From: Heterodontus francisci
Taxonomy: Eukaryota
Length of the DNA stretch: 64,000 nt
Reading direction: 5' to 3'
NCBI RefSeq assembly: GCF_036365525.1
Contig: NW_027141363.1
Coordinates: 372,001 to 436,000, forward strand
Shown: positions 2,877 through 45,160 of the stretch, piece by piece
How positions within the stretch are numbered: position 1 is the stretch's first letter
Layout of the letters: each line of letters opens with the position of its first letter
Position numbers and translations under genes: made by a program
The notes under the pieces: generated by a model
Database searches by the model: none
Told to the model about the DNA's origin: nothing
Seen by the model: only the letters and a program-made list of their open reading frames with translations

Positions 2877-2964
2877 AAGAGACTGGATGATCTCGAGGAC
2901 TGATCTTCTATGGTGCAACATTGGGTGTGGAATCTGTTTCGAATGCACCCCACAAGGGGGATAC

Positions 2965-5900
2965 CTGATGTTCCAGACACCGCTGGGGTAGACGATGATC
3001 CCCTAGTGGATTCTCGAGTTGTTTGTTCCTCGGGTTCCTCAGTTGCGACAGTCTCTGGATCTGTAATAAAGGAAGAGGGCAGAGTGGAGAAAACCCGAAG
3101 AGCTCGTTTATTTAGTTCTCTAGTCCAGACAGTGTCAGATTTTCATCTTTATCAAACCCTCGAAGATCCTATCCAACTCCTCGTGAACATTGCTTCCTGG
3201 AGAGGGAGTGTGAGGTGCCCAGCACTGCAGTGGGGACCTGACGTGAGCCATGAACACTGCAGGGATCAGAGTGCCTGATAGACAGAGACAGCAGAGTCTG
3301 GTTCAGTTCCCTAGAGTTTCAGTGAAGTACACTTTGTGTTTCAGATCCTTTATTCACTGTGTCCCTTACAATAAGGAGGGGAGTGAGTAAACCGTCTCAT
3401 TTCTGTGGGTGACACGGGACATCCCAGAATCACCCTCTGGATGATATAGAAGCATCAATGTACCTGTACAATACGCAGCGCAATAAAACAAGGACTTCAA
3501 CTCATAAACGAAGTAACTGCTGCAGTTTTTGATCTTTATCTCATGGACCTTGTCGCAGTGTTTTCTACCCCAGGATAAACAAACTGTCCGTGTTACTTCC
3601 CCCTGTCCCACGCTGGGATGGGAACCTGAAATGAGAGTTTATAAATATTGAAGACTGTAACCCATGTGAACAGTGCTGGACAGTGAATGTAAATCTGATA
3701 TTCTCAAGGCTGAAATTACCATTTAACCAGCCTGTAACATGTGTGGAGCAGTGAAAATCTGGGACAGCAGTCTCCGGAATCTTCCATCCACCAGAACTGA
3801 AACAAAAATCACAGAGTCAGTCCCTGAACTGATGGCAAATATTAACTGTTAGAGAGACTGGTACCAGCAGATAGTACCAGAAGCTGGGGGAAATCCCTTA
3901 CTCTGCCCATATTGACTAGATTACCCTGAAATTGTTCCTTTACATTACCTTTTAAATCTGTACCATCCTTGAGCAAGATTATCATCACACTTCTCCTGAC
4001 CGGAGCACCCAGTGACATCACAATCGCTGCTCCTCCAGGGCTGGTCCAGGACTGTGTGATTTACACACGGGTCAGTGAGTGCAGAGTCTGTGACTGAGTG
4101 ACAGAAAGATGTTTAATGTTAATATGTGACCTTACATCAGAACTGGGAAAAGTTCTAGTGACAAGTGAAACCGGGGAGGATGTGATGATAAATGGAAGGG
4201 ATCACACTCCCCTCAGTTACCGTATCACACTCTCCTCAGTCACTGTATCCCACTCCCCACAGTCACTGTATCCCAATCCCCACAGTCACTGAATCACACT
4301 CCCCTGAGTCACTGCATGCCACTCCCCTCAGTCACTACACCCACTTCCCTCAATTACAGCATCCCACTCCCCTCACTCACTGCACCCACTCCCCTCAGTC
4401 AGTGCACCCACTCCCATCAGTCACTACATCCCACTCCCCTCAGTCACTACATCCCACTCCCCTCAGTCACTACATCTCACTGCCCTCAGTCACTGCATCC
4501 CTCTCCCCTTAGTCGCTGCATCCCACTCCCCTCAATTACTGCATCCAACTCCCCTCAATCACTGCATCCCACTTCTCTATGTCACTGTACCCACTCCACC
4601 GAATCACTCTATACCATTCCCTTCAGTCACTGCACCTCACTCCCCGCTTCTCTACATCCTACTCCCCTCAGTTACCACATCACACTCAGTAGTCACTACA
4701 TCCCACTTCCCTCAATTACAGCATCCCACTCCCCTTAGTCACTACATCCCACTCCCGTCAGTCACTGTATCCCACTCCCCTCAGTCTCTGTATCCCACTC
4801 CCCTCAGTCGCTACTTCCCACACCCCTGTCACTACACCCCACTCTCCTCAGTCACTACACCCCACTCTCCTCAGTCACTACATCCCACTCTCCTCAGTCA
4901 CTACATCCCACTCCCCTCAGTCACTACATCCCACTCCCCTCAGTCACTACATCCCACTCCCCACATTCACTGTATCCTACTCCACCTAGTCACCACATCT
5001 CATTCGCTCAGTCACTGTATCCCACTCCCCTCAGTCTCTGTATCCCACTCCCCTCAGTCGCTACTTCCCACTCCGCTCAATCACTGCATCCCACACCCCT
5101 CAGTCACTACCTCCCACTCCCCTGTCACTACACCCCACTCTCCTCAGTCACTACACCCCACTCTCCTCAGTCACTACATCCCACTCCCCTCAGTCACTAC
5201 ATCCCACTCCCCTCAGTCACTACATCCCACTCCCCACATTCACTGTATCCTACTCCACCTAGTCACCGCATCTCATTCGCTCAGTCACTACATCCCACTC
5301 CCCTCAGTCTCTGCAGACCACTCCTCTCAGTCACTGCAGCCCACTCCTTACCGAGCTAGCCGTGTCCTAAAAGACAAAGCTGCTAGTCTGGGACTGCGGT
5401 AGGTGATGACAGAACCAACAAGAGGAGAAAATATACTTGACTTCATCCTCACCAATCTGCCTGCCACATATCCATCTGTCCATGACAGTCTTGGTGGGAG
5501 TGACCACCGCACAGTCCTTGAGGATCCATTGAGGATACCGTCCATCGTGTTGTGTGACACTATCACCATGCTAAATGGGATAGATTCAAACAAGTCTAGC
5601 AATGCAACAATGGGCATCCATGAGGTGCTGTGGGAACAACAGCAGCAGCAGAATTGTACTCAACTACAATCTGTAACCTCATGGTCCGGTATATCCCCCA
5701 CTCGATCATGACCATCAAGCCAGGAGACCAAACCTGGTTCCATGAAGAATGCAGGAGGGCATGTAAAGTGCAGCACAAGGCATACCTCAAAATGAGGTGT
5801 CAGCCTGGTGAAGCTACAACACAGGACTATCTGCATGCCAAACAGCATAATTAGCATGCGATGGACAGAGCTAAGCGATCCCATAACCAACGGATCAAAT

Positions 5901-8900
5901 GAGTTCCGAAGAAGGGTCGCTGACCCGAAACGTTAACTTTGCTTCTCTTTCCACAGATGCTGCCAGACCCGCTGAGTGATTCCAGTATTTCTTGTCCTGC
6001 CACATCCAGTCGTGAATGGCAGTAGACAATTAAACAACTAACTGGAGGAGGTGGCCCCACAAATATCCCCATCCTCAATGATCAGGGAGCCCAGCACATC
6101 AGTGCAAAAGATAAGGCTGAAGCATTTGCAAAAATCTTCAGCCAGAAGTGCTGAGTTGATTATCCATCTCGACCTTCTCCTGCAATCCCCAGCATCACAG
6201 ATGTCAGTCTTCAGCCAATTCGATTCACTCCGCTTGATATCAAGAAATGACTGAAGGCACTGGATACTGCAAAGGCTATGGGCCCTGACAATATCCCGGA
6301 AGTAGTACTGAAGACCTGTGCTCCAGAACTTGTTGCATCCTTAGCCAAGCTGTTCCAGTACAGCTACAACACTGGCATCTACCCTGCAATGTGGAAAACT
6401 GCCCAGGCATGTCCTGTGCATAAAAAGCAGGACAAGTCAAAGCAGGGCAAGTTCAAGCCACCCAATTACCGTCCCATCAGTCTACTCTCTATCATCAGTA
6501 AAATGATGGAAGGTGTCGTTGACAGTGCTATCAAGCGGCACTTGCTCAGCAATTACCTGTTCAGTGATGGTCAGTTTGGGTTCCGCCAGGGTCACTCAGC
6601 TCCTGACCTCATTACAGTGTGGTTCAAACATGGACAAAAGAGCTGAACTCAAGAGGTGAGGTGAGAGTGTTTGCCCTTCACATAGAGTCTGTCAGGATCC
6701 TGCTGCTGTGTCTGACACTCACCAGAAAACCTGAATCTCCTCAATTGCAGACCTGACAGAATACTACCCAGACATGCCAGCCCTCTCTCCAGACAGTGAG
6801 CGTCTGGTTCAGTTCCCTAGAGTTTTAGTGAAGAGTTCACTCTGTTTTACAGATCCTATATTCACTGTGTCCCTTACAAAAAGGAGGGCAGTGAGTAAAC
6901 TGTCTCATTCCCATGGGTGACAAGGGACATCCCAGAATCACCCATCTGCACCATATACAAACAGCAATCTACCAGTGCAATAAACAGCGTTACAGTCGGG
7001 TGGAGGCTTCAACTCATAAACAAAATAACTGCTGCAGTTTATGATCTTTATTTCCTGGGTCCAGTGACAGCGATTTCCAGCCTTGTTAAAACAAACTGTC
7101 CTCGTTACTTCCCCCTGTCCCACACTGGGATGGGAACCTGAAATGAGAGTTTATAAACATTGAAGAAAGTAACCCACGTGAACAGTGCTGGACAGTGAAT
7201 GTAAATCTGATATTTTTAAGACGGAAATTACCCTGTAACCAGCCTGTGGCACGTGTGGAGCAGTGAAAATCTGGGACAACAGTGTCCGGAATCTTCCATC
7301 CACCAGAACTGAAACAATAATCACAGAGTCAGTCCCTGAACTGATGGTAAATATTAACTGTTAGAGAGACTGGTAACAACAGATAGTGCCAGAAACTGGG
7401 GGAAATCCATTACTCCTCCCTCATTAACTGATTTACCCAGAATTTGTTCCTTTACATTACCTTTTAAATCTGTACCATCCTTGAGCAAGATTATCATCAC
7501 ACTTCTCCTGACCGGAGCCCACAGTGACATCACAATCGATGCTCCTCCAGGGCTGGTCCAGGACTGTGTGATTTACACACGGGTCAGTGAGTGTGGAGTC
7601 TGTGACTGAGTGACAGAAAGATGTTTAATGTTAATATAAAGTACAGTTAATGTTACACAGCGCCTTGTACCCTCCCGAAATACCAATAATCTCAGTTTCA
7701 CCCTCCGCCCTGGGCAAAGCCCCGCAGATTAAAGATGGAAAATGTCCTCCTTCTCTAAACTGGGTTTCCATCTGTCTCCCAGCTCAGCCTCCCCCTCTAA
7801 CTCACTGCTCACAGACAGTCCTCCCGATTCTAGATTGACCACCAGCTCTCAGGTCACAGAAAGCAGTAAATATCTCAGCTTCACTTCATCCCAGTAGGAA
7901 AGATGTAAAGTGGAGGAGGAGCGAGAACTGCCAGGTGGAGCACAAGCGACCCAGTGTGACTGGTGGGTCCTGGAGAGGGAACGTGTAGTCTCAAAACCAA
8001 CAACAACCTGCGTTTATGTACTGCCTTTGATGTAATAAAATGTCCCAAAGCACTTCATCGGTGTGTTACCATCCCGAACTGACACCGATCCACAGAAGCA
8101 GCTGGTCGGGCAGGTGGCCAAATGCTCTGTCAAAGAGGTAGGTTTTAAGGAGTGTCTGAAAGGATGAAAGAGAGGAGGAGAGACAGAGAAGTTGAGGGCT
8201 AGAATTCCATAGCGTTAAGCCTCGGCAGGTGAAGGCACAGCTGCCAATGGTGGAAGGGATTCGAATCGGGAATATTCAAGAGGCCTGAATTAGAGGAGCG
8301 CAGAGATCTCCAAGGGTTGTGGGGCTGGAGATGATTTCAGAGGTAGGGAACGGCTAGGTGATAGAAGGATCTGGAAACGATTGTGAGAATATTGAAATCC
8401 AGGCCTTGCTGAACCGGGAGCCAGTGTAGGTCAGTGAGCACGGAGATGAAAGGTGAACGGGACTTGGGCAGTATCATACTGGATGACCAAAATGTACAGA
8501 AGGTGGAATGTGAGAGATCAGCCAGGAGATCTTTGGAATAGTCAAGTCTAGAGTTACCAAAGAACTGGTAAAGGGTTTGAGCAGCGGTGAAGCTGCAAGA
8601 GCCAAGTCAGGAATACCGTTTCTGATCATCCTTCTCGAATTGTCGGCAGTCTTTGACACAATTCACCACATTACCCTCTGCCAACACCTCTCCTTCCATG
8701 TCCAGCTGGGTGGAACTGCTCTGGCCTATTTCCACTCAACCCAGTCTAGTCTCAGCCAGAGAATCTCCTGCAGTGTCTTCCCTACCCACTCCAGCACTGT
8801 TACCTCTAGGGTACCCCGAGAATCTATCTTGTCCCTCTCCAATTTCTCATCAGCTTCCGACTGTGCCCAGCTTCCTTCACTGTAGCCTCCTCATCACAAG

Positions 8901-9570
8901 GACATCCAATTACAACCTCCGTAATATCCACCATCACTGATTTTGCCTCAGCCAATCCTCTACCAAAAACCCTCTCCCTTCTAGAGAATCAAATCTTCTA
9001 ATCCACACCTGGCCAGCCTCCCAGCTTCCACTTTCCAGAAGTCAGGTCTCCTCCAACACACTGCTGTTGTATGTTATCTTGCAGAAAGTTTAAGTCACAC
9101 ATCACCCCTGTGCTCTCTGACCTACATTGGTTCACAGCTGCAAACGCCTTTGATGTACAACTTCCGTCTTCCTGTTCAAATTCTTTCATGACCTCTCCCG
9201 CCCTCTCCCACCTCATTTCTGTAATCTTCACCAACTCTCTGTTTCTCTGACCCAAGCCTCCTGTATAAATTCCCTCCACTCCCTTTCCTCCAGCAGTGTC
9301 TGATGTGGCTTCAAGATGTCTAGCCTCCTAAACCTTTCTGCCTCTCCACCTCCGTCTGCTCTTTTAAACTAACAGTCAGCCCTCCAATCATCTCCTTCCC
9401 TGCCGTGTGTCAGACATTTCTTCAATCAGATTTCTGTGCAACATCTTGGGAGATTATTCTATGTAACGGTATGAATAAACACAGCTTGTTCTAGTTGTAC
9501 TGGGGGTGAACTTTGTCGAGAATGAAAGTTACTCACTCAGGTAACCCAGAATGATCAGCAGAGTCCACAT
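2965..9570 (-). CDS. Paralog (copy A) of the tandem-D10C gene, 5' part; 3' exons continue below position 1
   Basis: Exons 9570-9537 (MWTLLIILGYL); D10C-1 7605-7461, 7308-7232, 7137-6973; D10C-2 4093-3949, 3796-3720, 3625-3464; stalk 3060-2965 (DPETVATEEPEEQTTRESTRGSSSTPAVSGTS). Exon sizes and phases equal copy B, with canonical splice sites and no stops. Confidence 0.87.
4200..5348. repeat. 23-bp minisatellite array between the D10C-1 and D10C-2 blocks (copy A)
   Basis: Same unit. Confidence 0.95.
5385..6680 (+). mobile_element. CR1/L2-group LINE ORF2 fragment in the D10C-1/D10C-2 intron; paralog at about 40390-41617
   Basis: PTRGENILD, SDH, GPDNIP, NYRPISLL, QFGFR motifs with stops and frameshifts. 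Confidence 0.88.
5898..5996 (+). mobile_element. Penelope-type terminal fragment with a minimal hammerhead-like motif; copy A only
   Basis: CCGAAGA-A-GGGTC-gct-GACCC-GAAAC..CACAGATGCTGCC; absent at the matching site in copy B (about 40925-40940). Confidence 0.65.
8020..9480. mobile_element. Two old L2 fragments (minus about 8020-8590, plus about 8600-9480); paralog at about 42950-44415
   Basis: LLELSAVFDTIHH (LLDLSAAFDTVDH), HITPVLSDLHW, L2-type 3' end. Confidence 0.75.
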
Positions 9571-10034: not shown

Positions 10035-10230
10035 CAAAGTCTCCAAAGTAGATGTCGCTGGGTGGGAGATGTTGTCGGTTCAGTTCCAGCTGCTTGCTCC
10101 TCAGTCTCGGGTCCACTCTGCTGTGAACAGTGTCAGTCTCAGTGTCAGCTCCAACCCCTATATACACCACGACGGATTGACTGCAGTGCTGGTTGGCTGA
10201 AATATTAACATTTAGTAATGATGAATGACA
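10035..10230 (-). promoter_or_regulatory. Putative promoter and non-coding exon 1 of copy A
   Basis: Minus-strand TATATAGG with TATATA at 10164-10159; donor TTG|gtaagc at 10035/10034; HNF1-like GTTAATATTT about 40 bp upstream of the TATA; acceptor ttccag in front of the signal-peptide exon (exon starts 9585). Confidence 0.55.
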
Positions 10231-27470: not shown

Positions 27471-28099
27471 AGCATTCGTTTCCTGAGCTCACTATAACTC
27501 CGTCCTTTGTTATTAAACATTTGACACTTGTCACACATAAATGCTATTGTACCAAATGAAAGCTTTCCTTTTAAATATATTTTGATTCTCAAAAGTTCAG
27601 CATCAACCGATGCCCCATTCTTCATGAACTCTCAATTTAAAAGATGTTATCTACCCAGAGGTTCTCCTTGGACAAGGACTAACTGTTTTCCTTGCCCCTG
27701 CTCTCAGTGCTGACAGCTCCATGAAGCTTTGGGACCTCTACTCAATGGTAGATCTTTAAAGAAACTCCCTCATTAAACCTGAGACCACTTCATCCTGATA
27801 GTGGCCAGAGCTGTCAGGTTAGTCTGGGTTCAGCTGACCAGTGGTCACTGTATACAAATGGGATCGTACTTCTCTATTTAACAAAGCAATAGCTTAAAGC
27901 TCCCACACCCCTGCAGTATAAAGACACACCAATTACAGTATAACATTAGCATACTTCTAGTCGGAGATTAACCCTTTGCTGACAATTTCCTTGAGTTAAA
28001 CAAGGTGAAGATAAGATGGTACAGTGATTGAGTGAGGATGTCAAACACACAGAGACTGGATCACACGTGTCGGGTGCTTGTTGACATGTCCAAACACCT

Positions 28100-31000
28100 T
28101 CACACTTCCACAGGCTCACTAGCCGAGCACTGAACGTCTTCTGGATCCAATTCGAGCTTCGTGTGTGGACACTGATCCTGGAACATGTGCTTCACCTGCA
28201 TCGCAGAGAGGAGAAACGATGAATATTAATGCAAGGGGAGGAGTGAATAGAAAGAGACAGAGAGGATACAGACAGAGATCGGGAGAAAGGGTGGGGACAA
28301 GACAGTGAGAGACAGGGTGAGGCAAAGATACTCAGATAGAGGGAGAGATGGAGAGGGAGGTTAGGAGAGCTCCAGGGATTGAGACAGAGGTAGAGAAACA
28401 GAGGGTGTGAGAGCGAGAGGTCGTCAGAGATGCAGTGAGGGAGAGACAGGCACAGACAGCAAGAAAGACAAAGAAAGAGAAATACAGAGTGGGTGAGCGA
28501 GGCAGAGAAAGAGACAGAGATAGAAAGGACATAAAGCGAGAATGGGGAGAGTGAGAGGGAAGATCAGAGAGAGGTTACCATACAACGAGGAGGCCATTCA
28601 TCTCCTCGAGTCTGTTATACAGGAACAGGAGAGGCCATTCAACCCCTCGTTCGAGTTCTTACACGGGAACAGGAGAAGGCCATTCAGCCCCCTCACCCCC
28701 TCTCGAGCCTTTCACACAGGCTTAGGAGGAGGCCCATTCAGCCCCTCACAAGCCTGAACTGGGGACCAGAAGATAAGCAGAGGTGGAATTAGAGCTGTTT
28801 AAATATCTGAGCTGGAAATCCCATTCAGTGAATACAGACAGTGAGAGGGAGGATCTGTTGTCTCCCGTGTTTCTCCTCAGTACCGTGCAGTCTCTCACCC
28901 TCTCCACAACGATTCTCTTTGCAGTTTCATAATCCAGATCAGTCATTGAAGTGATCTTCACATTAATCCTCTTGTATTTGGTACCTAAACACAACAGTCA
29001 CAACATCAACAGGTTGAACACACCCAGAGTTTCGCACAGGGCACGGGACGTATTTCGAATGATCTCTCCTCTCTAATTTAAACTCTCTTTCCTCCAGTTT
29101 GTCATCCACTCGTTTGTTCATCTGTCTCTGTTATTCTCTCTATCTCAACTCGTCTTGTCTCTGATCTGCCCTCCCTGTGTTATCATCCTCTATCCTGCAC
29201 TCTCTTCTCTGTTGCCTCCTTGTTCCATCTCCCTAGATCATTTGCATTCCGTGTTTACTCCGGTCTCACTGCCCTTTACTCTGTCTCTGTCGATCACTCT
29301 CACTCTCTCTCTCTCTCTGATGCTCTCTGTCCCTCTGACAAAGACAAAGACAGAGAGACAAAGAGCATCTGTGAGAGAGAGAGAAAGTGAGAGTCAGAGA
29401 GACAGACAGGGAGACAGAACATCAGAGAGAGTGGGAGACAGAGTGAGGCGAAAGAGGGAGCTGGAGAAACTGAGAGCCACATAGAAGGAGAAAGGCGGCT
29501 ACAGAAATGAAATATATTTATATATGCGTGTGAAAGGCAGATAAAGGAGAAACAGAGCGACAGAGATAAAACTGAGAGTTACAGAGAGAGGGATGCGAGA
29601 TAGAAGCTCAAAGATATTTCTGAAGGAATTTCTGAAGGTTTACGTTTCAGTCTTTTCCCAATGATTCCACTCACACTGAATACAACGTGACTGCAACTCT
29701 TGTCCGACAGCACAGACAAGGCACAGAGAGAGAGAGAGAGAGAGAGAGAACGATGGGTTTTCCGACACAGAACGATCACACATCTGTTTGGAGACACTCT
29801 AACCTGATAGATTTGTGCCAGACTGAGACGGGAGGAGGGATTTCATATTCAGAAATGTGTAGAATCTGAAATGTTCCCACCGTCATCAGAAACAGGCTGG
29901 GAGTGGGAGGTTCCTCAGGAGTAGACGAGACCCCGAGTCTGAGAGGATCAAATAAAGACAAGAGGAATTTCACTGGGATTCGGAACGCTGGATGAGTGGA
30001 GGGAACTGTTTTCACACAGAACCTTTTCTCGTATGTAATCTCACTCCCTTTACACACTGAATCAATGTGTACCAGCCATTACCGAGGGGAGACACCAGAC
30101 ATCATTGTCTGCAGAATCAGTTACTACTCCGACAGGAAAAAAAACTAACAGAGAAAACTCGGCAGATTATCAAAGTGATCGGCAAAAGGAGAGGAAGAAT
30201 GCCGTGAGGGGGAAAGTGGAGTCAGAGAACAAGAGAGAGCAGGAGTGAGAGAGAAAAGCAGGGAGGGCGACAGGGGTGATAGGGAAAAGAGTGAGGGAGA
30301 TCTGTAGTGAGTGAGAGCAAGAGAGAGAAAAGAAAACAGCAGTGTAATGTTCCCCTTAATCAGTATTGATACCCCTCCTCCTTTCCTTCCTTCCCTCTCT
30401 TTCCTGAACACCTTGTAGTCAGGAATATTCACTGCCCAGTCCTGCCCCTCTTAGAGCCAGGACTCTGTTATTGCCACAACAACATATTTCCACATGGTTA
30501 TTTGCGCCTGCAGCTCACCAACCTTATTTAACACTCTCCGGGCATTCATATCCACACACATTAAACAGAAGTTAGAGGTTAATAACTTCCTTCTTACACT
30601 GACCCCATCTAATACGTTATTCTATTTTACTGCCTTGCAACCTGTCCCTCAGAATTCTCTATGCATCTGTGTCTTACTTTTTAATGTTGCTCGAATCCTG
30701 TTCTTCTTGATGGATATTAATGAGTTACACTTGTGTGTACAGGGCAGAATTTCATAATTTGTAGTGAGCACAAGACCTGGAAGTATTGTGAACAGTGAGG
30801 AGGAAAGTGATGGACTTCAAGTTGACATAGACAGACCTGTGGGATGGGCAAGCAAGTGGCAGATGAAATTTAATGCAGAGAATTGTGAAGTGATTCATTT
30901 TGGTAGGAAGAAGGAGGAGAGGCAATATAAAATAAAGGATACAATTGTAAAGGAGGTGCAGGGGCAGAGGTGGTAAGACATGTCGAGAGAGTAGTGAATA

Positions 31001-34000
31001 CATAGGAAGGATGTTAAGGTATTCGAGAGGGTGCGGAAAAGATTTACGAGAATGGTTCCCGGGATGAGGGACGTCAGTTCCATGAATAGATCAGAGAAGC
31101 TGTGGCTGTTCTTCCTGCAGAAGAGAAGATGAAGAGGAGATTTGATCAAGGTGTTCAAAATCACGAGGGATGTGGACAGAGCAGACAGGGAGAAACTGTT
31201 CCCATTGGTGGGAGGATCCAGAACCAGTGGACACCGGTTTTAGGTGAGTGGTAAAAGTAGCAAAAGAGACAGGAAAACCTTTTCACACAGCGAGTGGTTA
31301 GGATCTGAAATGCACTGCCCGAGAGTGTACTGGAGGCAGGTTCAATTGAGGCTTTCAAAAGGGAATTGGATAATTATCATAGGAGAAACAATCTGCAGTG
31401 CAATGGGGAAATGGCAGGAGTGGGAGTCGGTGAGTTGCTCAGGCTGAGAGCTGGCACGGTGAAGATGGGCTGAACGGCCTCTTTCTGGGCTGTAACCAGT
31501 CGATGAATCCATGATTCTGCGATGATAACCCCACAAGGCAGGTACCTGAGCTTCCAGAGCCCGCTGGGATAGAGGATGAAACCTCAGTAGATTCTCTAGT
31601 CGATTGTTCCTCGGATGCCTGAGTTTGGAAAATCACGGGTTCTGTAATAAAGGGAGGGAGACATTGCAGAGAGAGATATGGAGTAAAACACGACCGGTCA
31701 ACAGGATGGTACTAGTGTCAGGAGAATGTCAGATAGCAGTCTTTATAAAACCATACTCTTCCATCCTGTTCACTGCATTACTGTGTCAAACTCCCCGATG
31801 TCACGGCGTCACACTCCCCTCAGTCTCTGTCACACTCTGCTCAGTCACTCTATCAAGCTCTCCTCAGTCACTGTATCACACTCCCATTAGTCGTTGCATC
31901 CCATTCCCCTCAGTCGCGGTATCCCACTCCTCTCATTCACTGTATCCCACTTCCCTCAGTCACTGCATCACACTCACCTCAATCACTGCATCACACTTAT
32001 CTCAGCCGCTGTATCCCACTCCCCTCAGTCAATGTATCACACTCCCCTCAGTCACTGTATCCCATTCCCTCAGTCACTGTATCACACTCCCCTCAGTCAC
32101 TGTATCACACTCCCCTCAGTCATTGTATCATGCTCCCCTCAGTCACTATGTCACACTCCCTAAATCACTGTATCACAGTCCCCTTTCTCACTGTATCGCA
32201 CTTCCCTCAGTCACTGTATCACACTCCGCTCAGTCGCTGCATCACCCTCCCCTCAGTCGCTGCATCACACTTCCCTCAGTCACTGTATCACACTCCCCTC
32301 AGCAATTGTATCACTCTTCCCTCAGTAACTGTATCACACTTCCCTCAATCACTGTATCACACTTCCCTCAGTCACTGTATCCCACTCCCCTCAGCAACTG
32401 TATCACACTTCCCTCAGTCACTGTATCCCACTCCCCACAGTTGCTGCATCACACTCCCCTCAGTCACTGTATCACATTTCCCTCAGACACTGTATCCCAC
32501 GCTCCGCAGTCACTGGATCCCAATCTCCTCAGTCACTGCATCCCACTCCGTTCAGTCAATGCATCGCACTCCCTTCAGTCACTAAATCTCACTCCCCTCA
32601 GTCACTTTGTCCCATTGCCCTCAGTCACTGTGTCCCACTGCCCTCAGTCACTACATCCAACTCCCCTCGGTCACTGCATCCCATCCCCCTCAGTCACGAG
32701 ATCCCACTCCGCTCAGTCATTACATCCCACTCCCCTCAGTCACTATATCCCACTGCCCTCTATCATTGCCCCACACTCCATCATTAAGAGACTGGATGTG
32801 TCTCTGAGACTGAGCACTTCAGGCGTCACAGTGTGGGACTCTGTAATGTGATTCCAGATTATTTGGGTCAGATCTGTTCTCACTCTATTGAGATTGGTTC
32901 TCCCTCAATGAATTATCTTTCCTCCGTATTTCTCCTTGTCCTTTTCCAGCGCCAACTTCAACCGCATGGTCCAATGGTCACTGTCCCCAAATGTTCCACG
33001 GTGGACCCTAAATTCACTTGTCCCACTTCATTTCCCAGAATCAGATCCAGCAATGCCTCCTTCCTCGTTGGACTGGAAACAAACTGACGTCAGAAATTCT
33101 CCTGAACACACTCGAGAAACTCTTGTCCCACTCTGCCGTTTACACTATTACTATTCCAGTCTATATTCAGATAATTATAGCCCAACGATCGATCAACACT
33201 TTAACTCTTGCATCTCTTGGTTGCTCTATGCAAATATGTTCCTCTATATCTTTCCCACCAGTTGTTGGCCTATAAAATACACCCAGAAAGGTCATGGTAT
33301 TTCTTCCGTTGTTTCACTTTAATCTGATGGATTCTATCCTTGGTTCCTCTGCGACATCATCGCTTTCCAGCACTGTAATGCTCCCCTTAATCAATACTGA
33401 AACCCGCCTCCTTTCCTTGCTTCCCTCTCTTTCCTGAACAGCTAGTAGTCAGGAATATTCACTACCCAGTCCTGCCTCTCTTCGAACCAGGAATCGGTTA
33501 TTGCCACAACAGCATATTTCCACGTGGCTATCTGCGCCTGCAGCTCAACAACCTTATTTACCACTCTCCGTCCATCCATATACACACACATTAAACTGAA
33601 TTTTCAGCTCATCACCATCCCTCTTACACTGTCCCAGTCCAATACGTTACTCTTTTCTACTCCAATGTTATCTGTCCCTCCTAATTCTCTGTGCATCTGT
33701 GTTTTACTCTTTAATATTGATCGAACCCTGTTTTTCTTGATGTATATTAATGTGTTGCATTTGTGTGTACAGGGCAGAATTTCAAAAGTTGTGGAGGGCA
33801 CAAGACCTGGAAGTATTGTGAACAGTGAGAAGGATAGTGATGGACTTCAAGTGGACATAGACAGACCTGTGGAATGGGCAGGAAAGTGACAGATGAAATT
33901 TAATGCAGAGAATTGTGAAGTGATTCATTTTGGTCGGACGAACGAGGAGAGGCAATATAAAATAAAGGATACAATTGTAAAGGGGGTGCAGGGGCAGAGG

Positions 34001-37000
34001 GACCTGGGCGTACGTGTGCACAAATCATTGAAGGTGGCAAGACAGAGAGCGGTGAATACTTAGGAAGGACGTTAATGTATTCGAGAGGGTGCGGAGATGA
34101 TTTACGAGAATGGTTCCCAGGATGAGGGACGTCAGTTACTTGGATAGATTGGAGAAGATGGGGCTGTTCTCCCTGGAGAAGAGAAGATTAAGAGAAGATT
34201 TGATCGAGGTGTTCAAAATCACGAGGGATGTGGACAGAGCTGACAGGGAGAAACTGTTCCCATTGGTGGTAGAATCCAGAACCAGAGGACACCGGTTTTA
34301 GGTGAGTGGTAAAAGTAGCAACAGAGACAGGAAAACCTTTTCACACAGCGAGTGGTTAGGGTCTGGAATGCACTGCCTGAGAGTGCGCTGGAGGCAGGTT
34401 CAATTGAGGCTTTCAAAAGGGAATTGGAAAATTATCATAGGAGAAACAGTCTGCTGGGTGATGGGGAAATGGCAGGAGTGCGAGTAGGTGGATTGCTCTG
34501 GCAGAGAGCTGGCACGGTGACGATGGGCTGAATGGCCTCTTTCTGTGCTGTAACCAGTCTCTGATTCCATCATTCTGTAATTATAGTCCGGCACGGCAGA
34601 TACCTGGGGTTCCAGAGCCCACTAGGATAGAGGATGAAACCTCAGTGGATTCTCCAGTCGATTGTTCCTCGGATTCCTGAGTTTGGGAAGTCATGGGCTC
34701 TGTTAGAAAGGGAGGCAAACATTGCAGAGTGAGAGATGGAGAAAAACACAACATTTCGACAGGATGGTACGAGTGTCAGGAGAAAGTGAGATATCAATCT
34801 TTATAAATCCATCATCTTCCATCCTTATCACTACATTACTGTATCCCACTCCCCTCAGTCACTGTATCCCACTCCCCTCAGTCGCTGTGTCCCATGCCCC
34901 TCAGTCGCTGTATCCCACTCCCCTCAGTCGCTTTTGCCCACTCCCCTCAGTCGCTGTATCCCACTCCCCTCAGTCACTGTATCACACTCCCCTCAGTCAC
35001 TGTATTACACTCCCCTCAGCCTGTGTAACCCACAACCCTCGGTCTCTACATTCCACTCCCCTCAGTCACCGCATCCCACTCCCATAGGTCACTACATCCC
35101 ACTCAGCTCCGTCAGTCTATCCCACTCCCCTCAGTCACTGCATCCCACCTCCCTCTGTCACTACATCCCACTACTCTCAGGCTCTAACTCGCACTCCCAC
35201 TTCCCTCAGTCACAACATCCCACTCCCTCAGTCAGGCCATCGCACTGCCCTCAGTCACGGCATCCCAAGCCCCTCCGTCACTGCCTCCCACTCTCCCTCA
35301 CTCTCTGGATCTAATATCAGTCACAGTATTCCACTCCCCTCATTCACTACAACTCACTCCCCTCAAACCTTTCACACAACTCCGCTCAGCCTCTCCATCC
35401 CAGTCCCCTCAGTCATTGCATCCCAATCACCTCCATCAGTCTATCCCACTCTTCTCAGTCACTACACCCCACCATCCTCTGCCATTACATTGCACTCCCC
35501 TTAGTCACGACATCCCACTCCCCTTAGTCAATGCATCCCACTCCCCTCAGTCAATGCATCCCACTGCCCTCAGTCACTGTGAGTGAGAGATAACGTGTGA
35601 GAGTTAGAGACAGTGAGAATGGGAGACAGAGTGAAAGAGGGCAACAGAGGGAGAGAAAAATGAGAAGAAAGAGAGCGATAGAAAATGTGAGAGATCAAGA
35701 AAGAGTCCGAGAGTGAGAGCAACAGATACAGACAGCGAGAGAAGAAGCGAAATGGGGAGAGCAGTGAGTTACAGAGATAAAGAGAGAGACAGAGGGAAAA
35801 CGAAATTGTCAGATAGAGATAGACAGAGACTAAGTGAAAATGGCAGACAGAGAGAGAGAGCAAATATAGAGATATAAAGAGAAAGATACACAGAGAGCAA
35901 AAGAGATACTGACAGGAAGTGCAGAAAGAGGCAGTGGGAGAGGAGGGTGGAGAGAGAGGGATAGAAAATAAAACAGTCACAAGTAAATCCAGTGGTGATT
36001 TCAGAGGAAGCCTCTTTACTCAAAAGTGCGTCACAGCCCTAGACTCATACAATTATACAGCATGGAAACAGGCCCTTCGGCCCATCGTGTCCATGCCGAT
36101 CATCAAGCACGTCGCTATTCTAATCCCATTTTCCAGCACTTGGCCCGTAATCATGTATGCTGCGGCGTTTCAAGTGCTTATCTAAATACTTATTAAATGT
36201 TGTGAGGGTTCATGCCTCTACCACCTCTTCAGACAGTGTGTTCCAGATTCCAACCACCCTCAGGGTGAAAATCTGTTTCCTCAAATCGCCTATAAACCTC
36301 TTGCCTTTTATCTTAAGTCTATTCCCCCTGGTTACTGACCCCTCCGCTAAGGGAAATAGTTTCTTCCAATCTAACCGATCAATGCCCCTTATAATTTTGT
36401 ATACCTCAATCAGGTCCCCCCTCAGCCTTCTCTGCTCTAAGGAAAACAACCATAGCCTAGCCAGCCTCTCTTAACAGCTGAAATGCTCCAGCCCAGGCAA
36501 CCTCCTGGTGAATCTCCTCTGCACCCTCTCCAGTGCAATCACATCCTTCCTATATTGTGGTGCCCAGAACTGTTCTCAGTACTCCAGCTGTGGCCAAACT
36601 AGCGTTTTGTACAGCTCCATCATAACCGCCCTGCTCTTATATTCTGTGCCTCGGCTAAGACAGGCAAGTATCCCATATACCTTCCAAACCACATGATCTA
36701 CCTGTGCTGCTGCCTTCAGTGAACTATGGACAAGTACACCAAGGTGTAGTGAGAATGTAGAATTAATCCTGAATTGTCCAGGGCAATGAAATTTGAGGTA
36801 AATCTGGTTAAACACCTGAAGGAGAAAGGAAAAGAGGGATAAGGTTGGATAAAGAGGAGTAGCAAGAGGGGCCGAGGGGCCTCTTACTGTGCGGTAGATT
36901 CCATTCACCCAAATCAGGCAGTCAGTGTAAGAATCTACCCGTCCTGCTTGATCAACACAAAACTGACACCTGAGGTGAAAGTATCGATTGGGTTAGATGG

Positions 37001-40000
37001 TGATTTCTCAATGGAGTGTGGAGTTGTTTGCTCCTTGGTTCTTGAGGTTGTTGAAGTCTCTGGATGTGTAATAAAGGGAAAGAAACATGGGGGAGAGCAG
37101 GAGTGAGAGGAAGCTCGAACTGGATAGATTAGAGTACAGTAAATCACAGATGCTAGTCTATATGAAAACCATTGTGAGACAATCCACTGTCCACACTCAC
37201 CGCATCCCAGTTGGCACAGGAACTGCATTACATTTTCCCCAGTCATAAAATGTCACTGCCCTCAGTCATTGCATCCCACTCCCCGCAATCACATCTTCTC
37301 AATCCCCTTAGTCACTAAATCCCACTCCCCTCAATTACATCATCCCACTCCCCTCCGTCACTGCATCCCACTCCCCTCTGTCACTGCATCCCACTCCCCT
37401 CAATTACTTCATCCCACTCCCCTCCTTCACTACATCCCAATCCCCTCAATTACATCATCCCACTCCCCTTAATCACTGCATGCCACTCCCCGCAGTCTCT
37501 ACATCCCACTCCCCTCAGTCACTACATCCCACTCCCCTCAATCACTACATCCCACTCCCCCTCAGTCACCCCATCCCACTCCCCTCAGTCACCCCATTCC
37601 ACTCCCCTCAGTCGCCCCATCCACTCCCCTCAGTCACTACATTCCACTCCCCTCAGTCACTCCATCACACTTCCCTCAGTAAGAGACTGGATGATCTCCA
37701 GGACTGATCTTCTATGATGTAACACTGGGTGTGGAATCTGTTTCGAATGGGCCCACAAGGGGGGTACCTGATGTTCCAGACACCGCTGGGGTAGACGATG
37801 ATCCCCTCGTGGATTCTCGAGTTGATTGTTCCTCGGGTTCCTCAGTTGTGGCAGTCTCTGGATCTGTAATAAAGGAAGAGGGCGGAGAGGAGGAAACCCG
37901 AAGAGCTCATGTATTTAGTACTCGAGTCCAGACAGTGTCAGATTTTCATCTTTATCAAACCCTCGACTATCCAATCTGACTCCTCGTGAACATTGTTTCC
38001 TGGAGAGGGAGTGTGAGGTATCCAGCACTGCAGTGGGGACCTGACGTGAGCCATGAACACTGCAGGGATCAGAGTGCCTGATAGACAGGGACAGCAGAGT
38101 TCAGTTCCCTAGAGTTTCAGTGAAGTACACTTTGTGTTTCAGACACTTTATTCACTGTGTCCCTTTCAATAAGGAGGGGAGCGAGTAAACTGTCTCATTT
38201 CGGTGGGTGACAAAGGACATCCCAGAATCACCCTCTGGATGATATAGAAGCATCAATGTACCTGTACAATACGCAGCGAAATGAAACAACGACTTCAACT
38301 CATAAACGAAGTAACTGTTGCAGTTTTTGATCTTTATCTCATGGACCTTGTAGCAGTGATTTGTACCCCAGTGTAAACAAACTGTCCGTGTTACTTCCCC
38401 CTCTCCCACGCTGGGATGGGAACCTGGAATGAGAATTTAGAAATATTGAATAATGTAACCCATGTGAACAGTGCTGGACAGTGAATGTAAATCTGATATT
38501 ATAAAGGCTGACAGTACCCTGTAACCAGCTTGTAACATGTGTGGAGCAGTGATGATGTGGGACAGCAGTCTCCGGAATCTTCCATCCACCAGAACTGAAA
38601 TAACAATCACAGAGTCAGTCCCTGAACTGATGGTAAATATTAACTGTTAGAGAGACTGGTACCATCAGATAGTACCAGAAGGTAGGGGAAATCCCTTATT
38701 CTGCCCATATTGACGAGATTACCCTGAAATTGTTCCTTTACATTACCTTTTAAATCGGTACCATCCGAAATGAAGACCATCATCACACTTCACCTGGCTG
38801 GAGCACCGAGTGTCATCACAATCGCTGCTCCTCCAGGGCTGGTCCAGGACTGTGTGATTTACACACGGGTCAGTGAGTGCAGAGTCTGTGACTGAGTGAC
38901 AGAAAGATGTTTAATGTTAATATGTGACCTTACATCAGAACTGGGAAAAGTTCAAGTGACAAGTGAAAGCGAGGAGGATGTGAAGATAAATGGAAGGGAT
39001 CACACACCCCTCAGTCACTGTATCCCATTCCCCTCAGTCACTGTATCCCAGTCCCCTCTGTCACTGTATCCCACTCCCCTCTGTCACTGTATCACACTCC
39101 CCTCAGCCACAGTATCACACTCCCCTCAGCCACTGTATCACACACCCCTCAGTCACTGTATCCCATTCCCCACAGTCACTGTATCACACTCCCCTCAGTC
39201 ACTGTATCCCATTCCCCTCAGTCACTGCATCCCACTTCCCTCAGTCTCTGTATCCCACTCCCCTCAGTCACTGTATCACACTCCCCTCAGTCACTGTATC
39301 CTACTCCCCTCAGTCACTGCATCCCACTCCCCTCAGCCACAGTATCACACACCCCTCAGCCACTGTATCACACTCCCCTCAGTCACTGTATCCCATTCCC
39401 CACAGTCACTGTATCACACGCCCCTCAGTCACTGTATCCCACTCCCCTCAGTCACTGCATCCCCCTCCCCTCAGTCACTGCATCCCACTCCCCTCAGTCA
39501 CTGCATCACACTCCCCTCAGTCACTGGATCCCACTCCACTCAGTCACTGGATGCCACTCCCACTCAGTCACTGGATGCCACTCCCCTCAGTCACTGCTTC
39601 CCACTCCCCTCAGTCACTGTATCACACTCCCCTCAGTCACTGTATCCCACTCCCCCCAGTCACTGTATCCCATTCCCCATAGTCACTGTATCACACTCCC
39701 CTCAGTCACTGTATCCCACTCCCCTCAGTCACTGCATCCCACTACCCTCAGTCACTGTATCCCACTCCCCTCAGTCACTGCTCCTACTACCCTCAATCAC
39801 TGCATCCCACTTCTCTATGTCACCACACCCAGTCCACCGAATCACTCTATAACATGCCCTTCATTCACTGCACCTCACTCCCCGCATCTTTACATCCTAC
39901 ACCCCTCAGTTACCACATCCTACTCATCAGTCACTGCATCCCACTACCCTCAGTCACTGTATCCCACTCCCATCAGTCACTACATCCTACTCCCCTCAGT

Positions 40001-43000
40001 CTCGTCATCCCACTCCCCTCAGTCACTGTACCCCACTCCCCTCAGTTACCACATCCTACTCATCAGTTACTGCATCCCACTTCCCTCAATTACAGCATCC
40101 CACTCCCTTCAGTCACTACATCCCACTCCCCTCAGTCACTGTATCCCACTCCCTTCAGTCACTACATCCCACTCCCCTCAGTCACTATACCCCACTCCCC
40201 TCAGTCACTACATCCCACTACCCTCAGTCACTGTATCCCACTCCCCTCAGTCACTGTATCCCCCTCCCCTCAGTCGCTACATCCCACTCCCCACATTCAC
40301 TGCATCCCACTCTCCTCAGTCACTACATCTCATTCCCCTCAGTCACTACATCCCACTGCCCTCAGTCGCTGCAGCCCACTCCTGACCGAGCTGCTAGTCT
40401 GGGACTGTGGCAGGTGATGACAGAACCAACAAGGGGAGAAAATATACTTGACGTCATCCTCACCAATCTGCCTGCCACATATCCATCTGCTGATGACAGT
40501 ATTGGTGGGAGTGACCACCGCACAGTCCTTGTGGAGACGAAGTCCCGCCTTCACATTGAGGATACCGTCCATCGTGTTGTGTGGCACTATCACCGTGCTG
40601 AATGGGATAGATTCAAACAAGTCTAGCAATGCAACAATGGGCATCCATGAGGTGCTGTGGGAACAACAGCAGCAGCAGAAATGTACTCAACCACAATCTG
40701 TAACCTCATGGTCCGGTATATCCCCCCACTCTATCATGACCATCAAGCCAGGAGACCAAACGTGGTTCAATGAAGAGTGCAGGAGGGCATGCAAAGTGCA
40801 GCACATGACAGACCTCAAAATGAGGTGTCAGCCTGGTGAAGCTACAACCCAGGACTATCTGCATGCCAAACAGCAGAAGCAGCATGTGATCGACAGAACT
40901 AAGCGATCCGATAACCAACGGATCAGATCTAAGCTCTGCAGTCCTGCGACATCCAGTCGTGAATGGCAGTAGACAATTAAACAACTAACTGGAGGAGGTG
41001 GCCCCACAAACATCCCCATCCTCAATGATCAGGGAGCCCAGCACATCAGTGCGAAAGATAAGGCTGAAGCATTTGCAAAATTCTTCAGCCAGAAGTGCCG
41101 AGTTGATGATACATCTCGGCCTTCTCCTGCAGTCCCAAGCATCACAGATGCCAGTCTTCAGCCAATTCGATTCACTCCGCTTGATATCAAGAAATGACTG
41201 AAGGCACTGGATACTGCAAAGGCTATGGGCCCTGACAATATCGCGGATGTACCTGTGCTCCAGAACTTGTTGCATCCTTAGCCAAGCTGTTCCAGTGCAG
41301 CTACAACACTGGCATCTACCCTGCAATGTGGAAAACTGCCCAGGCATGTCCTGTACATAAAAAGCAGGACAAGTCAAAGCAGGGCAAGTTCAACCCACCC
41401 AATTACCGTCCCATCAGTCTACTCTCTATCATCAGTAAAATGATGGAAGGTGTCGTTGACAGTGCTATCAAGTGGTACTTGCTCAGCAATTACCTGTTCA
41501 GTGATGGTCAGTTTGGGTTCCGCCGGGGTCACTCAGCACCTGACCTCATTACAGTGTGGTTCAAACATGGACAAAAGAGTGGAACTCAAGAGGTGAGGTG
41601 AGAGTGACTGCCCTTCACATAGAGTCTGTCAGGATCCTGCTGCTGTGTCTGACACTCACCAGAAAACCTGAATCTCCTCAATTGTAGACCTGACAGAATA
41701 CTACCCAGACATGCCAGCCCTCTCTCCAGACAGCGAGCGTCTGTTTCAGTTCCCTAGAGTTTTAGTGAAGAGTTCACTCTGTTTTACAGATCCTTTATTC
41801 ACTGTGTCCCTTACAAAAAGGAGGGCAGTGAGTAAACTGTCTCATTCCCATGGGTGACACGGGACATCCCAGAATCACCCATCTGCACCATATACAAACA
41901 GCAATCTACCTGTACAATAAGCAGCGTTACAGTCGGGTGGAGGCTTCAACTCATAAACAAAATAACTGCTGCAGTTTATGATCTTTATTTCCTGGGTCCA
42001 GTGACAGCGATTTCCAGCCTTGTTAAAACAAACTGTCCTCGTTACTTCCCCCTGTCCCACACTAGGATGGGAACCTGAAATGAGAGTTTATAAATATTGA
42101 AGAAAGTAACCCACGTGAACAGTGCTGGACAGTGAATGTAAATCTGATATTTTTAAGACGGAAATTACCCTGTAACCAGCCTGAGGCACGTGTGGAGCAG
42201 TGATACTGTGGGACAACAGTGTCCGGAATCTTCCATCCACCAGAACTGAAACAATAATCACAGAGTCAGTCCCTGAACTGATGGTAAATATTAACTGTTA
42301 GAGAGACTGGTAACAGCAGAGAGTACCAGAAACTGGGGGAAATCCATTACTCCTCCCTCATTAACTGATTTACCCAGAATTTGTTCCTTTACATTACCTT
42401 TTAAATCTGTACCATCCTTGAGCAAGATTATCATCACACTTCTCCTGACCGGAGCCCACAGTGACATCACAATCGATGCTCCTCCAAGGCTGGTCCAGGA
42501 CTGTGTGATTTACACACGGGTCAGTGAGTGTGGAGTCTGTGACTGAGTGACAGAAAGATGTTTAATGTTAATATAAAGTACAGTTAATGTTACACAGCGC
42601 CTTGTACCCTCCCGAAATACCAATAATCTCAGTTTCACCCTCCGCCCTGGGCAAAGCCCCGCAGATTAAAGCTGGAAAATGTCCTCCTTCTCTAAACTGG
42701 GTTTCCATCTGTCTCCCAGCTCAGCCTCCCCCTCTAACTCACTGCTCACAGACAGTCCTCCCGATTCTAGATTGACCACCAGCTCTCAGGTAACAGAAAG
42801 CAGTAAATATCTCAGCTTCACTTCATCCCAGTAGGAAAGATGTAAAGTGGAGGAGGAGCGAGAACTGCCAGGTGGAGCACAAGCCACCCAGTGTGACTGG
42901 TGGGTCCTGGAGAGGGAACGTGTAGTCTCAAAACCAACAACAACCTGCGTTTATGTAGAGCCTTTGATGTAATAAAATGTCCCAAAGCACTTCATCGGTG

Positions 43001-44504
43001 TGTTACCATCCCGAACTGACACCGATCCACAGAAGCAGCTGGTCGGGCAGGTGGCCAAATGCTCTGTCAAAGAGGTAGATTTTAAGGAGTGTCTGAAAGG
43101 ATGAAAGAGAGGTGGAGAGACGGAGAAGTTGAGGGAGAGAATTCCATAGCGTTAAGCCTCGGCAGGTGAAGGCACAGCTGCCAATGGTGGAAGGGATTCG
43201 AATCGGGAATACTCAAGAGGCCTGAATTAGAGGAGCGCAGAGATCTCCGAGGGTTGTGGGGCTGGAGATGATTTCAGCGGTAGGGAACGGCGAGGTGATA
43301 GAAGGATCTGGAAACAATTGTGAGAATATTGAAATCCAGGCCTTGCTGAACCGGGAGCCAGTGTAGGTCAGTGAGCACGGAGATGAAAGGTGAACTGGAC
43401 TTGGGCAGTATCATACTGGATGACCAAAATGTACAGAAGGTGGAATGTGAGAGATCAGCCAGGAGATCTTTGGAATAGTCAAGTCTAGAGGTACCAAAGT
43501 ACTGCTAAAGGGTTTGAGCAGCAGAGAAGCTGCAAGAGCCAAGTCAGGAATACTGTTTCTGATCATCCTTCTCGAATTGTCGGCAGTCTTTGACACAATT
43601 CACCACATTACCCTCTGCCAACACCTCTCCTTCCATGTCCAGCTGGGTGGAACTGCTCTGGCCTATTTCCACTCAACCCAGTCTAGTCTCAGCCAGAGAA
43701 TCTCCTGCAGTGTCTTCCCTACCCACTCCAGCACTGTTACCTCTAGGGTATCCCGAGAATCTATCTTGTCCCTCTCCAATTTCTCATCAGCTTCCGACTG
43801 TGCCCAGCTTCCTTCCCTGTAGCCTCCTCATCACAAGGACATCCAATTACAACCTCCGTAATATCCACCATCACTGATTTTGCCTCAGCCAATCCTCTAC
43901 CAAAAACCCTCAACCTTCTAGAGAATCAAATCTTCTAATCCACTCCTGGCCAGCCTCCCAGCTTCCACTTTCCAGAAGTCAGGTCTCCTCCAACACACTG
44001 CTGTTGTATGTTATCTTGCAGAAAGTTTAAGTCACACATCACCCCTGTGCTCTCTGACCCACATTGGTTCACAGCTGCAAACGCCTTTGATGTACAACTT
44101 CCATCTTCCTGTTCAAATTCTTTCATGACCTCTCCTCCCTCTCCCACCTCATTTCTGTAATCTTCACCAACTCTCTGTTTCTCTGACCCAAGCCTCCTGT
44201 AGAACTTCCCTCCACTCCCTTTCCTCCAGCAGTGTCTGATGTGGCTTCAAGATGTCTAGCCTCCTAAACCTTTCTGCCTCTCCACCTCCGTCTGCTTTTT
44301 TAAACTAACAGTCAGCCCTCCAATCATCTTCTTCCCCGCCGTGTCAGACATTTCTTCAATCAGATTTCTGTGGAACATCTTGGGAGATTATTCTATGTAA
44401 CGGTTTGAATAAACACAGCTTGTTCTAGTTGTACTGGGGGTGAACTTTGTCGAGAATGAAACTTACTCACTCAGGTAACCCAGAATGATCAGCAGATTCC
44501 ACAT
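28100..44504 (-). CDS. Complete multi-exon gene (copy B): secreted uromodulin/GP2-like tandem D10C (D8C) domain protein without ZP module, about 424 aa
   Basis: GT-AG exons, all in frame: 44504-44471 (MWNLLIILGYL); 42542-42398 (ITDSTLTDPCVNHTVLDQPWRSIDCDVTVGSGQEKCDDNLAQGWYRFK); 42245-42169 (SSGGWKIPDTVVPQYHCSTRASGWLQ); 42074-41910 (GSHPSVGQGEVTRTVCFNKAGNRCHWTQEIKIINCSSYFVYELKPPPDCNAAYCT); second D10C 38891-38747, 38594-38518, 38423-38262; 96-nt stalk exons 37863-37768, 34699-34604, 31641-31546; 28984-28899 (GTKYKRINVKITSMTDLDYETAKRIVVER); 28195-28100 (VKHMFQDQCPHTKLELDPEDVQCSASEPVEV*). The D10C motifs match UMOD/GP2 (DPC..LD..WRS, GWYRF, HP...G.V.R..C, YFVY.L..P..C..YCT). Confidence 0.85.
30330..32820 (+). 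repeat. Intragenic duplication unit (CR1 debris + stalk exon + minisatellite), repeated at about 33370-35580
   Basis: Same CR1 pieces and junctions precede the stalk exons at 31546-31641 and 34604-34699. Confidence 0.88.
31770..32785. repeat. 23-bp minisatellite array
   Basis: Same unit (GTATCACAC variant); follows a stalk exon. Confidence 0.95.
34835..35580. repeat. 23-bp minisatellite array
   Basis: Same unit. Confidence 0.93.
36040..36745 (-). mobile_element. CR1 3' fragment in a stalk intron
   Basis: FSLEQRRLRGDLIEVYKI, LYKTLV.PQLEY. Confidence 0.85.
36970..37065 (-). pseudogene. Degenerate fourth 96-nt stalk exon with its acceptor mutated (ttattacAC instead of ttattacAG)
   Basis: Open frame PETSTTSRTKEQTTPHSIEKSPSNPIDTFTS, homologous to the other stalk exons and exactly 96 nt; GT donor present, AG absent. 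Confidence 0.7.
37252..37680. repeat. 23-bp minisatellite array
   Basis: Same unit; positional equivalent of the much longer array at 1-2876. Confidence 0.93.
39000..40382. repeat. 23-bp minisatellite array (copy B, between D10C blocks)
   Basis: Same unit. Confidence 0.95.
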
Positions 44505-44967
44505 CTTACTGGCTGAGATTCTGGAAAGGGAAACACAAGACAAACATTTGAGAGAGATTACCGAGTAGGGAATTGGAGGGAATATTAAATATGGAGTTGC
44601 CGAGGAGTTCGTCAGTATATCTGTTCAGAGTGGTGAGCTCCATCTAATTATCTCTCTCTCACTGGGACTCTTACAGACAGAGGTGAGCTCAGCTACATGT
44701 TCTTGTTAAACATCAGGAACTTGACTCCAATCTTTCACCCTTTCCACTCTCCAAAGCTTTTATGAATAATTGCATGTGTTCCTGACTCTCTCCTCCAGGT
44801 CTGTCTCCTGCATCCCTGTAACGAACCTCTTTGAATTTCTGGCAAAGGTTATGACTGAAGATGGTGTTGTTTCAGGAGAAGCAGGACACACACCCCCTGG
44901 GTCAACACCTAGCAAGTGACAAACTCCTTTGCTTTTTCTAACAGGCCTCCCATACCCAACTGCTTAC

Positions 44968-45160
44968 CAGAGTCTCCAATGGAGGTGTCACTGGGTGGGA
45001 GATGTTGTCGGTTCAATTCCAGCTGCTTGCTCCTCAGTCTTGGGTCCACTCTGCTGTGAACAGTGTCAATCTCAGTGACAGCTCCAACCCCTATATACAC
45101 CACGGCGGATTGACTGCATTGCTGGTTGGCTGAAATATTTACATTTAGTCATGATGAATG
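44968..45160 (-). promoter_or_regulatory. Putative promoter and non-coding exon 1 of copy B
   Basis: TATATA at 45097-45092 and donor CTG|gtaagc at 44968/44967, both conserved with copy A. Confidence 0.55.

Follow-up and report, generated by a model that had tools for sequence, protein, structure and literature searches.

Of the described systems, UMOD and GP2 come closest to the gene presented here; both carry a D10C/D8C head (PF23283) and on the current view, neither works as an adhesin decoy without its ZP filaments. The D10C domain is also used outside UMOD and GP2, since OIT3 (LZP) combines it with a ZP domain and VWDE with VWD and EGF domains, and we know of no tail of the shark type in either of them. 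The ZP modules are controlled by a propeptide or by cleavage. According to PMC8930769, D10C occurs in VWDE, OIT3 and VWDE are both listed in the legend of the D10C alignment, and the glycan site at N65 of GP2 binds FimH. The tail of the present gene is best compared with the SEA domain; according to PMC10327162, each half of the cleaved MUC1 SEA domain contributes two strands to one sheet.

In this study, which was based on a 64,000-nt window of the Heterodontus francisci genome (GCF_036365525.1, contig NW_027141363.1:372,001-436,000, forward strand), we analysed a minus-strand gene that ends in a 60-residue tail. This tail is the genuine, spliced end of a gene that belongs to a very large family in sharks, whose products are likely secreted, have uromodulin-type heads and lack the filament-forming part. 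The gene model with the tail is open over 424 aa (454 with the optional exon S2), has canonical AG/GT exon ends and leads from a signal-like N-terminus through two D10C (D8C) heads and a Ser/Thr/Glu stalk to the tail. The first coding exon (44471..44504) contains the ATG and a hydrophobic segment that resembles a signal peptide by hydropathy alone, and the N-terminus of P0006 is identical. The first head (41910..42542; exons 42542-42398, 42245-42169 and 42074-41910) was matched by PF23283 in its third exon (E 5.5e-7) and has an N-x-T sequon at residue 23, while the second (38262..38891; exons 38891-38747, 38594-38518 and 38423-38262) has one at residue 152, and Pfam D8C_UMOD was found twice on the near-identical P0009. 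The stalk (41% Ser/Thr and 18% Glu) is encoded by S1 (37768..37863, 96 nt, phase 1-1), the optional S2 (36970..37059, 90 nt), whose usual acceptor is altered with an in-frame AG 6 nt further on and whose peptide is identical in P0022, S3 (34604..34699, 96 nt, phase 1-1), whose peptide is identical in P0009 and P0022, and S4 (31546..31641, 96 nt, phase 1-1). Eighteen of the 20 cysteines in the model are located in the heads and two in the tail. Neither a ZP domain nor a membrane anchor was found in the 424-aa model and, by hydropathy, there is no hydrophobic segment after the N-terminus; the maximum for the tail over 15 residues is -0.13, and it thus has no anchor segment. Each head of the window gene has nine cysteines with a spacing unlike that of the ten described for GP2, and the odd number leaves one cysteine free.

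The tail is encoded by two exons. The first, T1 (28899..28984, 86 nt, AG/GT ends), starts in phase 1, ends in phase 0 and encodes a predicted strand, a loop and the first half of a helix, with the phase-0 intron at its donor located inside the predicted helix. The second, T2 (28100..28195, 96 nt including the TGA stop), has an AG acceptor, starts in phase 0 and encodes the end of the helix, Cys38, a second extended segment and Cys52. The location, phases and translation of the exons agree with what had been read from the sequence in the first-pass annotation, and the two cysteines noted there are at tail positions 38 and 52. The splice evidence came from contigs of three runs of one sample, presumed to be RNA, which were compared over window positions 27500-31750. 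The T1-T2 intron (703 nt) was skipped exactly in the contigs of two of the three runs and the S4-T1 intron (2561 nt) in those of one, run X2, where a single contig joins S4 straight to T1; a cDNA-type joint between the stalk and the tail is therefore present in the contigs, in paralog form. The contigs extend about 600 nt past the tail stop codon (3' UTR as far as covered, 27503..28099; contigs of runs X1 and X2 span 27503-28194), and this stop codon with the 3' UTR cover behind it is one of the grounds for the absence of a ZP domain. Because the contig base at 28931 differs from that of the window, the contigs are paralog transcripts, and the splice form they show is that of the family rather than that of the window copy. 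Moreover, the joined tail is contained in the RefSeq models P0006 and P0008, which are labelled Heterodontus francisci, and among the 39 paralog loci examined T1 was intact in all and T2 in 37. The tail is also neither predicted to be disordered (pLDDT 81) nor without homologs, as relatives were found in six other shark genera. It is a real, spliced, conserved and unannotated C-terminal module at the position where UMOD and GP2 have their ZP module. In L027 and L039 the last tail exon is broken, by a 2-nt loss in one and by an interruption in the other, at which intron-like pieces are repeated at a 90-bp spacing.

A further stalk exon, S5 (29881..29938, read as 29938-29881), which was absent from the first-pass annotation, bears on whether the window copy itself makes the tail. 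S5 is 60 nt long in 37 of the 39 paralog loci, 58 nt in one and uncalled in one. The window exon is 58 nt long and hence frameshifted; if spliced in, it leads to a stop at codon 382, upstream of the tail, so that this copy can yield the tail only when the exon is skipped. S5 had no cover in the presumed-RNA contigs, which proves nothing about its use. It is rather unlikely that the tail of this copy is not made, either because S5 is spliced in and translation stops within the stalk or because the copy is decaying. This would fit the intact AG/GT ends of the 58-nt exon, the altered S2 acceptor, the nine cysteines of each D10C head, the Tyr that replaces Asp/Glu at the helix start only in the window copy and in L001, and the paralog base at 28931 in the contig over T1. 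However, direct S4-T1 splicing occurs in the family, the remaining exons of the window copy are all open with canonical ends, and the argument concerns a single copy and not the family module. The copy in the window has a twin on C761 (L001) with 99% identity; the two share the 58-nt S5 and the helix-start Tyr and represent either a recent duplicate or another haplotype.

The wider family consists of elasmobranch proteins without a ZP domain that have a signal-like start, one to four D10C heads, a repeat stalk and a tail of one of two types, of which that of the window is type 1. The range of one to four heads was observed in the retrieved models, and Pfam D8C (PF23283) covers two stretches each in P0006 and P0009. 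In the Heterodontus francisci genome, T1 had 69 matches among 69 candidates, the tail exons of both types number on the order of 190, and D8C had at least 146 matches when 150 of the 423 candidates were scored. None of the 100 ZP (PF00100) matches obtained from 150 scored candidates of 191 fell on the contigs of the family; they are located on other contigs. Pfam reported only D8C_UMOD on P0006, with no ZP family and no EGF domain. Large tandem arrays of ZP-domain exons were seen at G000:C2:223.0-225.1 Mb, C48:10.6-11.5 Mb and C36:45.5-45.8 Mb. In contrast to UMOD and GP2, the shark family has no ZP, EGF or hydrophobic C-terminal anchor and no room for a beta-hairpin ahead of the first head, and it has tandem three-exon heads, a stalk of repeat exons, an unannotated tail and on the order of 190 tail exons in the one genome.

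The first-pass annotation had proposed that the tail replaces ZP, which is borne out for its position only. The D10C head is split over three exons here and lies in one open frame in a D8C-plus-ZP gene of the same genome (G000:C42:7430824-7439606; L081, L082; ZP 8.5 kb from D8C), which we take to be OIT3-like, and D10C is also present in VWDE; descent from UMOD by the loss of ZP is thus unproven. The heads also share with GP2 a DPC-x-N-x-T sequon that matches N65, the FimH-binding glycan site according to PMC8930769. The N-x-T is present at this place in both window heads, though in only 27 of the 54 D10C starts among the proteins analysed (isoforms counted). By analogy with GP2, the retention of this sequon in both heads makes a decoy role plausible.

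A profile search of 6548 candidates recovered 18 proteins with the tail, every one of them under a shark name, and a nine-sequence profile that was compared with 1.84 billion representatives gave eight matches, including five shark tails. The relatives belong to Mustelus, Carcharodon, Cetorhinus, Scyliorhinus, Chiloscyllium and Stegostoma, which span four galeomorph orders. Three non-shark matches of the search at E<=0.001 (P0033, P0034 and P0037) were dropped as repeat-driven, a judgement that comes from the sequence of P0037 and the 10 stretches of P0034; P0033 has 0 stretches. The tail had also been likened to the C-terminal tails of teleost C-type-lectin and GP2-like proteins; there was no teleost match at E<=0.001 among the 1.84 billion representatives, for which a 60-position profile may fall short, and this resemblance therefore remains a lead. 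That the tail is unannotated was borne out by Pfam, which assigned no family at E<0.001 to any of 12 tails. Its weak rows for OSCP (E 0.054-0.19) and Flavi_propep (E 0.0016) were below the cut-off and were taken as chance, and the best values in PDB sequence searches with the tail, E 0.63 and 0.34, were at chance level. V9, S13, A22, Q37 and C52 are invariant in all 12 aligned tails. Between species, the tail is less conserved than the last head, with an identity of 32-49% vs 61-70%. Among 38 young copies, the tail exons have 0.106 variants per site vs 0.178 in the intron, with a pN/pS of 0.7 for the tail, which is a weak signal.

The family is already present in RefSeq under automatic names. 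The RefSeq/UniRef models XP_067883778.1, XP_072329629.1, XP_043533706.1, XP_041038350.1 and XP_055492300.1 have the same architecture with the tails present, and the names of the automatic shark and skate models (uncharacterized, GP2-like, uromodulin-like, OIT3-like) were assigned by similarity, with the tail unannotated. A literature search, whose coverage excluded most subscription journals, found no paper on a ZP-less D10C-stalk family, and the main text of PMC11979771 nowhere mentions uromodulin, umod, GP2, OIT3 or D8C. What is new here is the reading of the tail as a half-fold, the intron position it has in common with SEA and the existence of two paralogous tail types.

The fold was modelled with AlphaFold2 on the tail of P0006, which differs from that of the window in three residues. 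The pLDDT was 74 with five alignment rows and 81 with 12 rows (pTM 0.62), and both models have a helix at 19-37 and no strand bridges. Of the strand-helix-strand pattern in the first-pass annotation, the helix was thus recovered, and the two strands came out as extended segments that do not pair in the monomer. The flanking segments do show a strand-like hydrophobic alternation (moments 0.76 and 0.74). The tail is accordingly predicted to be an ordered but incomplete fold, with one helix between unpaired extended segments, although the unpaired strands may be an artefact of the 12-row alignment. Foldseek against the PDB gave no matches at E<=0.001, and in a wider structure search all of the matches were below Z 4 and tied with unrelated folds. 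For model 1, the N-terminal chain of the MUC1 SEA domain topped the list (Z 3.7, rmsd 3.0, 48 aligned), and six of the 50 best rows were chains that contain SEA (ranks 1, 3, 6, 11, 19 and 22). For model 2, which is the better one, they took five of the 50 best rows (ranks 6, 7, 15, 18 and 20) behind unrelated proteins, the top row was protoporphyrinogen oxidase (Z 3.7), and none of the best 50 was the MUC1 N-half. Overall, the matches to SEA halves, among which we count the matched ranges of GPR110, GPR126 and TMPRSS6, had Z values of 2.7-3.7, level with unrelated folds, and several other rows are ferredoxin-like. In the ESM Atlas, the P0006 tail had one feature match (0.75) along with weak structure rows, whose TM reached 0.56 at most, while the P0032 tail had no usable match, which shows neither novelty nor absence.

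The comparison with SEA at the level of exons was mixed. The SEA profile (PF01390) matched none of the 12 tails, and a complete SEA fold of four strands and two helices in one chain was not found, as the tail ends after 60 residues and one helix. In this genome, most first SEA exons have their phase-0 donor within helix 1, and those second exons that were found start with L-x-x-L-F/Y, like the second exon of the tail. When anchored at the intron, type 1 scored z 3.2 against SEA (2/5000 shuffles), which could arise from helix periodicity alone, and type 2 scored z 0.9. An unanchored comparison of type 1 with the first SEA exons (hhalign) was at chance, with 18 of 100 shuffles as high. The SEA alignments comprised 19 of 30 loci in the unanchored comparison, where one junk row (L057) and intron tails were included, 16 in the second step and four for the anchored scoring. 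Features that the tail may have in common with the SEA halves of MUC1, GPR110, TMPRSS and MUC16 are its place after a Ser/Thr-rich stalk, a predicted strand-helix-strand half fold, a weak structural match over about 50 residues, and a phase-0 intron that interrupts helix 1 where the hydrophobic register is similar. Unlike them, it encodes one half only, which is ended by a stop, it has no sequence-level SEA match, its strand-to-helix loop is about nine residues shorter, and the same chain has neither a second half nor a membrane segment. On these results, the tail in its predicted form resembles one half of a ferredoxin-like fold, and it may have arisen from SEA, but we do not class it as SEA. 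A long array of SEA exons, some of them at a spacing of about 1.9 kb, is located at G000:C36:26.7-27.5 Mb (L040-L069) and is MUC16-like.

The explanation that we favour, although we would put it just short of an even chance, is that the tail is half of a ferredoxin-like (SEA-type) fold and that two tails interlock. Two type-1 tails, or a type-1 tail and one of the paralogous type 2, would interlock their strands into a four-stranded sheet beneath two helices, and the invariant Cys52 might serve to lock the pair. What would result is a soluble dimer whose glycosylated arms present four D10C heads, and at body surfaces it would be a multivalent decoy or binder of low order and not a filament. 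The homo-oligomerisation proposed in the first-pass annotation would, on this reading, follow from the incompleteness of the predicted fold. Counting against the explanation are the structure matches below Z 4, the missing Pfam SEA match and the chance-level unanchored comparison, the lower conservation of the tail than of the heads, the pN/pS of 0.7, the presence of the sequon in only half of the D10C starts and the possible truncation of the window copy at S5. Since a half-fold most simply gives dimers, the avidity would be far less than that of a ZP filament, and on this model low-order avidity from a dimer instead of ZP-like filaments is likely. A prediction of a two-copy tail complex had ipSAE values of 0.04 and 0.03, which are evidence neither way as the alignment was unused and the fold of the partner is uncertain. 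Alternatively, the tail could be a self-contained monomeric cap, or could dock on an unrelated partner, for instance a protein of the membrane or matrix from which the missing strands would come, and would then localise the protein rather than multimerise it. This is unlikely in our estimate. In its favour, the confidence of the monomer model is already fair (pLDDT 81), the tandem heads (one to four per model) provide some avidity by themselves, and an intrachain bond could form between Cys38 and Cys52, which are both present in all nine tails of the first wider alignment. However, strand pairing is absent from both monomer models, and in two of the 12 tails Cys38 is lost and Cys52 kept (one of the two has a cysteine at the start of strand 1), which shows that Cys52 does not need Cys38.

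Still more doubtful is an assembly into open-ended polymers or a disulfide-linked mesh, by which the tail would be a true functional stand-in for ZP filaments; we consider it very improbable. Exposed edge strands and an invariant cysteine could propagate such a structure, and the tail matches ZP in position, but no result points to open-ended assembly, the nearest folds are closed domains of two halves, and a control by propeptide or cleavage like that of ZP is not evident in 60 residues. If the interlocking of half-folds is right, the tail would define a new small assembly module, and the roughly 190 tail-bearing genes with a D10C head would represent a second route to the multivalency of the heads; a large unstudied candidate defence family could then be tested with a peptide of 60 residues.

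The second tail type, which was absent from the first-pass annotation, opens the possibility of hetero-pairing. Carcharodon P0016 and the skate P0013 and P0017 end in this type 2, which had 121 matches among 125 candidates in the Heterodontus francisci genome (C325, C1075, C220 and C328; L070-L079). As in type 1, its start is in phase 1 and its helix is interrupted by a phase-0 intron. In the ungapped comparison anchored at the intron, types 1 and 2 scored z 5.0 (0/5000 shuffles), with offset 0 the sole positive of 13, and hhalign placed them in the same register (P 0.003, probability 10%); judged by their sequences, the two types are paralogous. We also considered that type 2 could be a helical hairpin or the C-terminal half of SEA, but dropped this because it aligns in register with type 1. 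One could thus propose that type-1 and type-2 tails are obligate hetero-partners, with one fold split over two gene classes and different D10C heads combined. This paralogy would favour it, as would the interspersion of the types on C220 (six type 1 and 21 type 2) and C328 (two and 10) and the splicing of type 2 in the same sample as type 1 (two of the three runs). Against this, the skate proteins retrieved have type 2 only and no ray type-1 tail appeared in the profile searches, the copy numbers are unequal (69 vs 121 matches), hhalign with the thin first type-2 alignment of three rows was at chance, and the charge complementarity between the types that was seen in this species is lost in Mustelus. 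Obligate pairing is, on balance, quite improbable. The same judgement applies to its broadest form, in which half-SEA-like tails on about 190 secreted D10C genes would pair in trans into combinatorial multi-headed decoys, that is, a germ-line repertoire; if both types do pair, the combinations of heads would multiply. In Heterodontus francisci, the type-2 chains end in a basic Lys/Arg stretch.

The window also contains the next paralog of the tandem array (2965..9570, minus strand), of which the first exon, two D10C heads and the first stalk exon are open over 300 codons, with the tail located to the left of the window (L019). The two copies are arranged head to tail about 35 kb apart, and a segmental duplication of 7.3 kb with 94.6% identity links window positions 5994-13243 and 40941-48180. 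Several introns are filled with a minisatellite of about 23 bp (1-5350, 31800-32780, 34830-35580, 37250-37680 and 39000-40380), and remnants of LINE reverse transcriptase are present at about 23700-24830 and elsewhere in the window.
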